Shown here: one piece after another, positions 43,736-47,191 of the stretch | How positions within the stretch are numbered: position 1 is the stretch's first letter | How the letters are laid out: each line of letters opens with the position of its first letter | DNA from: Alistipes sp. | GTDB lineage: Bacteria > Bacteroidota > Bacteroidia > Bacteroidales > Rikenellaceae | DNA: 64,000 bases | Assembly: GCA_045652985.1 (NCBI GenBank) | Contig: JAZOLM010000032.1 | Coordinates: forward strand, 6,916-70,915 | Direction of reading: 5' to 3' | Notes under the pieces: model-generated | Told to the model about the DNA's origin: nothing | The model's input: only the letters and a program-made list of their open reading frames with translations | The model's database searches: none | Made by a program: the position numbers and the translations under genes

Positions 43736-44277
43736 AAATCTTTTTTGTTTATCTATTTTACTAAGAGTGTTTGTAACCTTCTTTGTTTCAGTTTTATACT
43801 ACAAATTTACCCTCCCCCTATGAATTTTCCAAATTTTAGTATGCTTTTTTTTCGTTGCTCTTCTACTATTAAACGTATAGCAAGGCATAATGTAACATGC
43901 GAAGTGTAATTTTTTTTTCGGAATACCCACTTAAGATTATGTGAAAGGTATAAATTTTTTTTGTAATCATAATTTTTGTTTATTCGTTTGTGTTTTTGCC
44001 ATTGCAAAGTTAGCTCCTTATGATGCGGTAGCCAAATTTTAGCCTCTCGAATTTTTCCACAACACACCTTAAACCATGTTGGTTATCAACACTTTACAGA
44101 TGTGGAATTTGCGAATTTTTCAAGGTGTTGATTACCAATAAGTTACAATAATACTTTTACTATATAATTTATTAATATCTGAATATCAGTTGCTTAGTCA
44201 TAGATATTACATCATTATTGAACAAGGCGCATAAAAAAGGAGTCAACCGATTGCAAGGAGGATACCTCCATTTGGCA

Positions 44278-44408
44278 AAGTATAACAAGAGCTGATATTA
44301 GGCTAACGCTCCTTTTCATTGCTTCGGCTCAAAAAAGCGCAGTTTGCTGAGTGTAAATGGCATTTTGAGAGCGAGCGTAACGACAAATTAGTCTTGTTAG
44401 ACAGCTTC
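44278..44408 (-). mobile_element. Diverged MITE-like copy (same family as 55730 and 39377)
   Basis: Reverse complement reads GAAGCTGTCTAACAAGACTAATTTGTCGTTACGCT...ATTTAC...AAACTGCG...GAGCCGAAGCAA...AGCTCTTGTTATAC. Confidence 0.75.
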
Positions 44409-44475
44409 ATGTAGCGGAGTGGTCCACTTCGATAGATATTGCACATAGCAACATCAATCCGAAAATCTTTTTCAT
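44407..44475 (-). pseudogene. Truncated secreted-protein gene or 22-aa peptide
   Basis: MKKIFGLMLLCAISIEVDHSAT*; AT-rich initiation region upstream; stop codon overlaps the MITE end. Confidence 0.45.
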
Positions 44476-44730: not shown

Positions 44731-44867
44731 TACAAAGGTAAGAAAAAGTTTGGAGATTAGAAAATTTTGTAGTACTTTTATAATGACTTTATACGATGTA
44801 ATCCAAACACTAAATTCAAAAATTACATCACCACCTCTTCCTTGAAAGAGAATAAACCCAGCGGTAG

Positions 44868-44915
44868 TGAAGTGACCCCAAAAGTTTAGACAAAAAAACT
44901 TTTGGGGTCACTTCA
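44868..44915. repeat. Perfect 20-bp inverted repeat resembling IS3-family termini
   Basis: TGAAGTGACCCCAAAAGTTT-agacaaaa-AAACTTTTGGGGTCACTTCA. Confidence 0.75.
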
Positions 44916-44925
44916 AATGCGTTGT

Positions 44926-45150
44926 GGGTATCCTTTTTAATACCCGTACAACTGGATGAGCGCCTTTGTGATGGTTGAGCTACACCCATGTCGCGGGTAT
45001 TATTTTTAATACCCGTGTGAAGGTAGTGTGTAAATAGTCAGATGTCGACACTAATCAACGTGGGTATCTTTTTTAATACCCGTGTGCAGGTAGTGTGTGT
45101 AAGTGGTCAAATGTCAATACCAATTAACGCGGGTATTAAAAATGATACCC
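44926..45150. repeat. Left arm of interspaced palindrome array (4 copies of GGGTAT-N8-ATACCC)
   Basis: Copies at 44926, 44995, 45062, 45131; periods 69, 67, 69 bp. Confidence 0.95.
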
Positions 45151-45175
45151 GTACGCGGTGAGAGTTGTAATAGGT

Positions 45176-45406
45176 TTACTCAATGCTGATATTGGATAGC
45201 GCTCTGCCAAGCTCTCTGATATATCTTTCAATCTCCATGCGACGCTCGAGCGTTGGGCGCTTCACACCATTAACATATTGCTGCATCAATGTCTCGTTGA
45301 TGCCAATGGCTCGCGCAACCTGTCGCACATTTAGTTCAGGAAATCTGTTGAATAGCTCTCCAATATGATTTCTCTCCATTGTGAATTTTGTGGTGTGCTT
45401 ATCCAT
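45176..45406 (-). CDS. Stand-alone XRE-like HTH protein, 76 aa (resembles C-terminal HTH of Bacteroidales HicB-like antitoxins)
   Basis: ELNVRQVARAIGINETLMQQYVNGVKRPT..R..EIERYIRELGRAL; start MDKH at 45406 lies just downstream of the predicted promoter. Confidence 0.88.
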   Translation of the reverse strand: MDKHTTKFTMERNHIGELFNRFPELNVRQVARAIGINETLMQQYVNGVKRPTLERRMEIERYIRELGRALSNISIE

Positions 45407-45422
45407 AGTGTAGATTTTTATA

Positions 45423-45454
45423 CAAATGTAGGTATTATTTTTAATACCCACAAA
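45423..45454 (-). promoter_or_regulatory. Bacteroidetes sigma-A promoter of the HTH gene with palindromic operator in its spacer
   Basis: Minus strand: TTTG (45454-45451), 20 nt, TACATTTG (45430-45423); palindrome copy occupies 45430-45449. Confidence 0.8.
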
Positions 45455-46725
45455 TCCATAAATATATTATTTGTCTTGGGAGAACTATCCCGCCACGTGG
45501 GTATTAAAAAAGATGCCCATCACACATGGGACGATTATTAGATGGAGTGCGCTATCGCATGGTGGCGATTTGATTGTATGATGAAGTGCCCAGCAGCGCG
45601 GGTATTATAAAAGATACCCACAATGTGTGGGGCAAGCTATTGCCTTTGGAGTTGGAGAGGGATTGTTGCGCGGGTATTAAAAATAATACCCGCAACATAT
45701 GGGGACTATTAGATCGATCGAGCTTACGGGTATTAAGAGCGATGCCTGCAAATTTATTAGCGAAATTCCTTTCTTGATGGGGGGGGCTTCGCTGCTATAT
45801 GGGTATTAAAAATAATACCCGCATTGCTTTGGAAAATAATATACTCCATTTTTCAACTCCACTGCCACGTGGGTATTAAAAAAGATACCCATCACACATG
45901 GGACGATTATTAGATGGAGTGCGCTACCTAACGGGTATTATAAAAGATACCCGCAACACATGGGGGGGAGCTATGTTATTATTTGATGGTGAGTCATGCA
46001 CATGGGTATTAAAAAAGATACCCGCAAATTAGGGATACTAGTTTTGTCATTGGGGAGGGGAACTGTTGCTCGGGTATTAAAAATAATACCCACATCACAA
46101 GAAGAAAGCAAGGGTCTTGCTTGCAACACTCTATCTTAGCGCGGGTATTAAAAAAGATACCCACAAATTAAGGAGCGAAATGCCTTTCTTAAGGGGAAAC
46201 CATCACTGCTATCCGGGTATTAAAAAAGATACCCGCAAAATAAGTGGTGAAATTCCTTTCTTGATGGGGGACTTCGCTACTATCTGGGTATTAAAAAAGA
46301 CACCCACAAATTAAGGAGCGAAATGCCTTTCTTAAGGGAAAAGCTTCACTGCTATCCGGGTATTAAAAATAATACCCGCAACACATGGGGGAAGCTATGT
46401 TATTATTTGATGGTGTGCCATGCACATGGGTATTAAAAAAGATACCCGCAAAATAGGGATACTAGTTTTGTCATTGGGGAGGGGAACTGTAGCTCGGGTA
46501 TTAAAAATAATACCCACATCACAAGAATAGAACAAGGGTCTTACTTGCAACACTCTATCTATGCACGGGTATTAAAAAAGATACCCGCAAAATAGGGATA
46601 CTAGTTTTGTCATTGGGGAGGGGAACTGTTGCTCGGGTATTAAAAATAATACCCACATCACAAGAAGAAAACAAGGGTCTTGCTTGCAACACTCTATCTA
46701 TGCACGGGTATTAAAAAAGATACCC
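45430..46725. repeat. Right arm of interspaced palindrome array (19 copies of GGGTAT-N8-ATACCC)
   Basis: Copies at 45430, 45499, 45600, 45672, 45728, 45801, 45871, 45933, 46004, 46072, 46143, 46215, 46286, 46358, 46428, 46496, 46567, 46635, 46706; period mostly 68-73 bp. Confidence 0.97.
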
Positions 46726-47191
46726 GCTAATTAAGTGGTGAAATTCCTTTTTATAGTGTGAGCTAGTGCCAACAAAACAATCTTCTCGGATGCTTCAAGC
46801 CTCACTCCCAATACGATTTATTGTTCTTGCCCGACTTTTGTCGGATAGTTACAGTTTTTTGAAGTTATGGTGGGTGGTCAAAAGTGAACTTTGCAATCAC
46901 GGCGCGGGGAGAACAAGTTTACTTGTTACGCCTCGCCGTAGCAAAGTGGAGGCATTACGTAGTTTTGCCTCAAAAGTAGTGTGTCTGCGAAATAGGATTA
47001 ACGGATAGGAACGGTTGGAGTAATAGGTGCGCGTTTTGCTTGATAGGAGCGATAGCAATATACTCGCGCGCAAGCAATCATATTGCTCCTACGATATAAG
47101 ATATAAACCTCTCGCGAAGCGCACCACACTTTTCGGTTTTCACCTCTCCCTTTTCACCTTAAATCAACACCATCCTCCATTAGTAGATGCC

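Follow-up and report, generated by a model that had tools for sequence, protein, structure and literature searches.

HipB and other XRE repressors bind, as dimers of a helix-turn-helix (HTH) protein, to palindromes with an AT-rich centre that overlap their own promoter. To our knowledge, such repressors have few operators at one promoter, and not tens of operators in two-sided arrays together with genome-wide copies. The DUF4160/DUF2442 pair DhiTA has been described as a type II toxin-antitoxin (TA) pair, and both DhiA and DhiTA act in Dickeya as repressors of their own promoter, according to the cited part of PMC8198452. Palindromic repeats are also found in REPtrons, which are described in the cited sections of PMC3733652 and PMC3337134 as a RAYT gene plus REP/REPIN repeats; for CGTC REPs a dedicated enzyme is lacking in the cited portions of the REP literature. 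In the part of PMC1797815 used here, NIMEs are reported as not observed outside Neisseria, and the partner hypothesised for dRS3 is a phage recombinase rather than a cognate repressor. For the origin and upkeep of REP-/NIME-type palindromic repeats we present a named candidate protein.

The locus studied here lies in a window of 64,000 nucleotides from Alistipes sp., by which we mean the whole stretch of DNA that was analysed. Our analysis suggests that an operator has likely turned into an amplifying repeat, with an orphaned antitoxin repressor and co-diversifying sites that behave as a dispersed repeat family. No description of a lone HTH gene with an operator array was found in the open-access literature (main texts).

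The palindrome array

The pattern GGGTAT-N8-ATACCC was found 22 times in the window with at most one mismatch (19 exact copies, three with one mismatch), compared with 0.15 matches expected by chance and a maximum of two in 100 shuffles. Together with a degenerate copy with two arm mismatches at 45728 (45728-45747), this confirms the 23 copies that the first-pass annotation had counted around a 76-aa HTH gene. Four of them form a downstream array (44926..45150), three with a core orientation opposite to that of the main upstream array. The other 19 lie 5′ of the gene (45430-46725), including one in its promoter; without the promoter copy the upstream array has 18 copies (45499..46725, including the degenerate one) and a period of mostly 68-73 bp. 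Over the whole array, start-to-start spacings are 67-73 bp, except for 56, 62 and 101 bp and a 299-bp gap that contains the HTH gene. The site is better described as an 8-4-8 palindrome, GGGTATTA-A4-[TA/AG]ATACCC, with an A-tract at its centre and a pyrimidine/purine preference in its flanks.

The repeat had been said to be conserved while the spacers vary. The cores are indeed kept near-invariant, and spacers that are not duplicates of each other are close to shuffled identity (median 0.51 vs 0.48). The statement on the spacers needs correction, since 14 of the 21 have a sister copy (13 groups at ≥75% identity) and the distal half of the array is block-duplicated (45963..46737), with a 212-nt block at 45963 and 46387 (93% identical) and a part of it again at 46526. 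None of the spacers matched the remainder of the host genome.

A relative locus (L012) carries the same proximal units as the window array in another copy number. Contigs with pieces of gene and array were present in all four public DNA runs (four studies); none spans the whole stretch, and in several of them array units are missing or swapped with respect to the window. The array is therefore strain-variable and not the assembly artefact that had been named as a possible refutation, and arrays gain and lose units between strains. It is noteworthy that assemblies break at such arrays, which might also be mistaken for CRISPR arrays.

Three unrelated dispersed repeat modules were seen around the array, at 44270-44420, 44860-44915 and 46970-47160, with 16, 5 and 19 further matches in the genome, respectively. 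The module at 44860-44915 is an inverted repeat, which we take to resemble IS or MITE ends, and repeat modules inside 46880-47160 are also plentiful in relatives.

The lone HTH gene and its promoter

The lone XRE-like HTH gene (P0001, 76 aa) is encoded at 45176..45406 on the minus strand. Its product resembles the C-terminal domain of DUF2442-HTH antitoxin-like proteins, with 54% identity across 67 aa to the DUF2442-HTH protein of locus L125. Searches against Pfam and NCBIfam gave no match above the cut-off, with HTH_3/HTH_26 below it. The structure model has four helices (mean pLDDT 86.8) and found no match in Foldseek at E 0.001 or better; the top rows were XRE/HipB-like and included HipB structures, none of them significant. 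The predicted start of the recognition helix lies at 45275..45298 (minus strand; residues 37-44, NETLMQQY; model helix 38-46). A homodimer model scored 0.73 against 0.00 for the best control, with 100% of contacts shared between runs and a pLDDT of 88, a result that may reflect likeness to solved dimers; the mark was attained by 20 of 30 solved homodimers and one of 23 monomers. From this model, the lone HTH is predicted to dimerise via its C-terminal helix.

Among ten relatives dN/dS was 0.05-0.18 where computable (0.25 for one near-identical pair; L012 was used in place of the window's own gene), and the lone HTH gene is therefore under purifying selection. The closest named relative of P0001 (99% identity) belongs to a metagenome assembly of Alistipes, and every one of the 21 loci in the homologue scan carries Alistipes or Tidjanibacter in its title.

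The Bacteroidetes -7 and -33 elements are TAnnTTTG and TTG/TTTG (promoter consensus from the cited part of PMC7366714). On the minus strand, one palindrome copy (45430..45449) fills the 20-nt spacer between a match to the -33 box (TTTG, 45451..45454) and a match to the -7 box (TACATTTG, 45423..45430), the first T of which is the last base of the palindrome. This copy is a likely autorepression operator, and its placement makes autorepression of the HTH gene at the window locus probable. A scan for sigma-70 promoters, the wrong promoter type here, stayed at chance level. Only six of the 64 lone HTH loci passed a strict filter for promoter-embedded copies (four more were found by eye), and five have sites downstream only, although 1.5 kb of upstream sequence is present; for these reasons autorepression is regarded as neither family-wide nor part of the conserved core. 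At L204, L205 and L206 we observed a lone HTH class that begins a few bases past the stop codon of a host gene and has its array downstream only.

Lone HTHs and palindromes across relatives

At least two sites were present near 61 of 62 distinct lone HTH domains, and at least three near 57 of them, whereas the same finder detected no or one site at 22 of 22 TA loci. Identical domains were counted once for the 62, and L042, L057, L058, L060, L166 and the truncated L128 (under 85 bits) were left out; L205 and L206, just under 85 bits, are outside the 62 but inside the 64-locus sets. No member of the lone HTH clade was detected outside Rikenellaceae among 301 Bacteroidales genomes, other families having only longer DUF2442-/HicB-type proteins. 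A repeated palindrome, of a different kind, occurred at one of 28 such loci of other families.

Specifically, helix NETLMQQY pairs with half-site GGGTATTA, NETL[FL]RNY with RGGTATCG, NPALMRQY/SEVLMRQY with GGGTTACA, SEKLLQHY with GGGTAGCA, NESLMNHY with GGGTACGA, NYSLMQQY with RGGTACTC, NRTLMQHY with GGGTAACT and NDKLMHQY with GGGTAGGT or GGGTATAC. Read from these sequence pairings, the palindrome changes with the helix across lone HTH classes. Where helix position 3 is K or R (7/7 rows from three separate branches), half-site base 6 is G, and a single clade for the K/R rows was rejected (p-AU 0.005, helix columns dropped). The K/R helix group was chosen after the first tree was seen, and the K/R-G covariation amounts to three independent pairs, all concordant (p 0.25), a number that cannot give significance. 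S at helix position 3 goes with C in 7/7 lone rows but not in two TA rows, and the contrast for NETLMQQY gave no independent support for a helix-site code.

Two to three paralogs are present in nine genomes (20 loci, window genome included), and each array is led by its own palindrome variant with few strays. This comparison within genomes is the strongest control, since a repeat merely landing near a gene would not sort by paralog. The first-pass annotation had proposed a two-part system of one DNA-binding protein plus an array of its sites, to be checked by array flanking of homologs and by covariation with the recognition helix; both are borne out among the relatives, the latter also within genomes, and support an HTH with an array of its own putative sites. 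The co-diversified helix/site classes might serve as a small readable protein-DNA code and as candidate orthogonal repressor-operator pairs for Bacteroidales.

The second lone HTH paralog of the window genome (L003, G000:C47:5025-6109; 60% identity) has its own 12-copy variant array with a period of 55-58 bp, and the variant is found twice more on contig C71 and once on C2. In one assembly, identical HTH copies at two contig starts (L030 and L031) differ in their downstream arrays and neighbours; either the gene was duplicated recently or the assembly was split at the array.

Dispersed copies and relocation of the module

Within three mismatches, 59 palindrome copies are present in the host genome, and 37 of these lie outside the window locus; the 59 form 14 clusters spread over 11 contigs. 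A genome-wide dispersed repeat unrelated to the gene had been put forward as a refutation of the two-part system; the repeat is dispersed, and it is not unrelated to the gene. In a sample of the family, the exact pattern had at least 13 copies in 8 of 151 genomes, one copy in two and none in 141. Counts within the single genus g28 range from 0 to 148 per genome: all 11 genomes with a lone HTH have at least seven sites, and none of 14 site-free genomes has a lone HTH. No lone HTH was found in 13 of the 20 genomes of this genus with at least 20 sites (metagenome assemblies, which break at arrays), and the spread of the repeat may not need the HTH. In genome G085 the dispersed palindromes are of a class that differs from that of its HTH.

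Most dispersed copies are found next to the 3′ ends of genes; of 44, 16 are in convergent, 25 in tandem and three in divergent positions. In two high-copy genomes (G169 and G178), the palindrome is one module of bigger short-repeat mosaics in the 20 regions read. These regions (L208-L227) are intergenic mosaics of 300-550 bp made of short tandem and palindromic modules, with the operator palindrome at their borders; they recur at many loci, are BIME/NIME-like and look mobile as units. Many other short intergenic repeat families occur in the host genome, the largest having a 16-mer in 59 copies. Dispersed copies in the host genome often adjoin variable surface or Lcl-domain genes, and at L004, L006, L008 and L010 the neighbouring genes encode Ser/Thr kinases and Lcl_C (DUF1566) proteins of an expanded family, as checked with Pfam for L006 and L010.

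At the window locus the module has pyc on one side and a gene for an outer-membrane receptor on the other, and the 3′ ends of pyc had no palindrome site in the five relatives searched. Between pheT and htpG the module is present in six relatives and the position is empty in the host genome; this gap (contig C44) is filled by a mosaic of other repeat families. The chromosomal position of the module thus differs from relative to relative. Clustering of neighbourhoods sorted the 64 lone loci into 33 groups, an upper limit given that groups are split where flanks are short. Seven of 21 relative loci (L014, L015, L019, L022, L026, L028 and L029) carry locus-unique genes between sites beside the HTH. 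In L014 (330-4040) the array is split by an insert with a tyrosine integrase gene, one end of which abuts a palindrome copy, and the palindrome may serve as an integration target there. A search for a mobilising enzyme gave no match to Y1/RAYT (PF01797) in 5/5 genomes and none to IS110/Piv in the host genome, and all six tyrosine-recombinase matches of the host genome are on contigs without palindrome sites.

Several of these observations would fit a neutral or selfish REP-like repeat, in which the operator was swept into mosaic intergenic repeats and spread by some host or mobile enzyme, while the HTH merely autoregulates and the neighbouring arrays are local overgrowth of its single operator. 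The 3′ positions of the dispersed copies, their embedding in mosaics of other repeats, the abundance of other repeat families in the host genome and the high-copy genomes in which no HTH was found all speak for this reading, as do longer paired arms in some dispersed copies (p ~0.04 in two sets). However, it leaves unexplained that the five downstream-only arrays match the helix of the local HTH and that each paralog's array does so, as well as the near-invariant cores beside non-duplicate spacers at shuffled identity. We consider it unlikely, and it is the alternative that survives best.

Probable descent from DUF4160/DUF2442 toxin-antitoxin operons

The longer relatives closest to P0001 are DUF2442-HTH proteins: of 19 matches, 15 carry PF10387 or neighbour it in the list (14 annotated). 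Their genes sit downstream of DUF4160 genes, as confirmed with Pfam for L125 and L126; a match to DhiT is weak and below the cut-off. HicB-type proteins are more distant from P0001. This corrects the resemblance to HicB-like antitoxins seen at first, the closest full-length proteins being of DUF2442-HTH (DhiA-like) type.

At 17 of 22 DUF2442-HTH loci we found a single 8-4-8 palindrome whose last base is the T of TAnnTTTG and which usually has TTG/TTTG directly in front of it, and the proximal copy of the window (45430-45449) is placed in the same way. In four of these operons (L038, L039, L125 and L126) the palindrome is identical in sequence to that of the window array, and in the tree the same four fall into a 65-row clade with the lone HTHs (support 96/92, with a long-branch warning). 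Based on the palindrome shared at the -7 box of TA operons and window gene, together with the tree grouping, the palindrome is likely the operator of the lone HTH's family and the lone gene the DNA-binding remnant of a DUF2442-HTH antitoxin. That the palindrome is the binding site of P0001 itself is highly probable. Beside the window HTH there is no DUF4160 ORF, and tblastn with a DUF4160 protein was empty across the host genome (83% complete). The DUF2442 domain (PF10387) is absent from P0001 and had no match in the five array-bearing genomes searched.

Other loci show further arrangements. Intact DUF4160/DUF2442-HTH operons with the same operator as the window array lie in a prophage-like Rikenellaceae region (L038, L126, L127 and L129, the last from IMG/VR). 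Stacked or split DUF4160/DUF2442/HTH arrangements were seen at L040, L042, L051 and L058, and the operon of L042 has a stand-alone HTH ORF in third place, which may represent a step on the way to the lone gene.

The shared operator raises the alternative of anti-addiction or cross-repression, in which the lone HTH would silence same-operator DUF4160/DUF2442 operons on incoming prophages, or the arrays would titrate their repressor. Besides the prophage-like operons, three of 26 viral pattern matches (L135, L145 and L155) combine the operator with such an operon, the other 23 being single hits without one, and the half-site GGTATCG of a second class is present in the TA operon L239. Cross-repression of same-operator prophage TA operons is thus possible for one or two HTH classes. 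As a general function it is rather improbable, since the arrays would absorb the very repressor needed for silencing, for most lone classes the 22 TA loci and four from other families contain no matching operator, and the array-bearing genomes searched gave no DUF2442 match.

Proposed mechanism

We propose that loss of the toxin and the DUF2442 domain would have left an orphan HTH that still dimerises via its C-terminal helix, and that the dimer would bind the double-stranded 8-4-8 site and repress its own promoter at the window locus. Arrays would expand and contract by slippage or recombination between identical cores with the use of host functions, and HTH binding would preserve the cores while the spacers drift. 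A change in helix specificity would let the adjacent array turn over to the new sequence, and recombination between cores would also relocate the HTH gene and trap accessory genes. The system might then work in the manner of a REPtron or a NIME array, but with a cognate protein that coats the repeats and does not cut them. Recognition of double-stranded DNA is favoured over that of a hairpin because the bases flanking the palindrome at -1/+1 are independent (CG 66, CA 64, TA 28, TG 22) and because pairing between the arms of array sites does not exceed that of shuffled arms (p 0.26 and 0.32).

Taken as a whole, a dimer that binds and autorepresses, cores preserved by binding during unit turnover, and recombination that moves the gene and traps accessory genes form the reading that we favour with modest confidence. 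For the part that HTH binding maintains the arrays, we put the chances slightly above even. That the HTH itself promotes the genome-wide spread of the palindrome is doubtful. Only tentatively can the locus be seen as a self-propagating gene-plus-site element without a catalytic protein, in which putative HTH binding would make the operator duplicate and recombine, so that the HTH multiplies its own sites, moves within them, captures accessory genes between them and escapes resident paralogs by helix change. If the proposal is true, the origin of a REP/NIME-type repeat family could be traced to a transcription-factor operator. On this view all three stages can be seen here: one TA operator as the ancestor, arrays on both sides of the orphan HTH as the intermediate, and as many as 148 dispersed copies as the end state.

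Another reading sees the HTH as an ordinary host regulator whose dispersed sites control genes, with the array buffering the HTH level as a decoy. Decoy titration is a published principle (PMC8599769, in the part cited), and the promoter-embedded copy, the purifying selection on the lone HTH gene and the dispersed copies beside variable surface or Lcl-domain genes would agree with such a regulon. It is nonetheless very unlikely, considering that none of 126 dispersed sites abuts a TAnnTTTG box, that only three of 44 lie between divergent genes and that copy number varies from 0 to 148 inside one genus.

A transcribed array cut at its hairpins into ~70-nt RNAs, as the first-pass annotation had suggested, would be a Cas-less CRISPR-like or guide array. 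It would suit the regular period and the capacity of each site for hairpin formation (-11.2 kcal/mol for a single site with its flanks), and is extremely improbable because the palindrome flanks do not covary, most spacers (14/21) are local duplicates without a match in phage and plasmid collections, the repeat tracks a DNA-recognition helix, no Rfam family reached gathering level and no Cas1 was found in the host genome (83% complete).

Comparison with described systems

Several named systems resemble the locus in part. A CRISPR array was rejected, as most spacers are duplicated and not unique. The array had no match in phage and plasmid collections (which may hold few phages of the host group), Cas1 had none in the host genome (83% complete), and Rfam gave three weak matches far below gathering scores and no CRISPR repeat family. 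A partition centromere (parS/parC-like) was likewise rejected. The histogram of spacings looked suggestive of helical phasing, but the formal test was unsupportive (resultant ~0.2, no 10.5 bp peak across 330 spacings), which also argues against the centromere-like phased scaffold considered earlier. By inspection, no NTPase gene lies beside the HTH in 23 mapped loci.

With HipB and other XRE repressors the locus would share an HTH dimer, here predicted, whose palindromic site is AT-rich at the centre and overlaps the promoter of the HTH gene itself. With DhiTA-like operons it shares the likeness of P0001 to the C-terminal domain of Bacteroidales DUF2442-HTH proteins and the same promoter palindrome, whose position at the window locus corresponds to an autoregulatory operator; the operator sequence of DhiTA operons is not named in the cited part of PMC8198452. 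In contrast to these operons, the window system has neither toxin nor DUF2442 domain, and local amplification of its operators reaches 2-25 fold, with dispersed copies in addition. The resemblance to Neisseria dRS3/NIMEs, as described in the cited part of PMC1797815, lies in 20-bp 6-8-6 inverted repeats with spacers of ~50 bp and up, arrays that vary between strains and adjoin variable surface-protein genes, and a proposed role in recombination. Arm sequence and phylum are different, the relatives of the window being Rikenellaceae. As in REPtrons, going by the cited sections, a small gene is flanked by palindrome copies that are also dispersed at gene ends, several paralogs occur per genome with one repeat class each, and repeats persist where the gene is missing.

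The window system is a member of neither REPtrons nor NIME arrays, because its protein is not a HUH nuclease and sequence and host differ, nor is it a TA module, because it has no toxin and no DUF2442 domain. Specifically, in place of the HUH/Y1 nuclease of REPtrons it encodes a non-catalytic HTH, and the GTAG or CGTC tag is absent from its palindrome consensus. Recognition looks double-stranded here, with arm pairing seen weakly and in dispersed copies only, and, different from REPtrons, the repeat appears traceable to a promoter operator.
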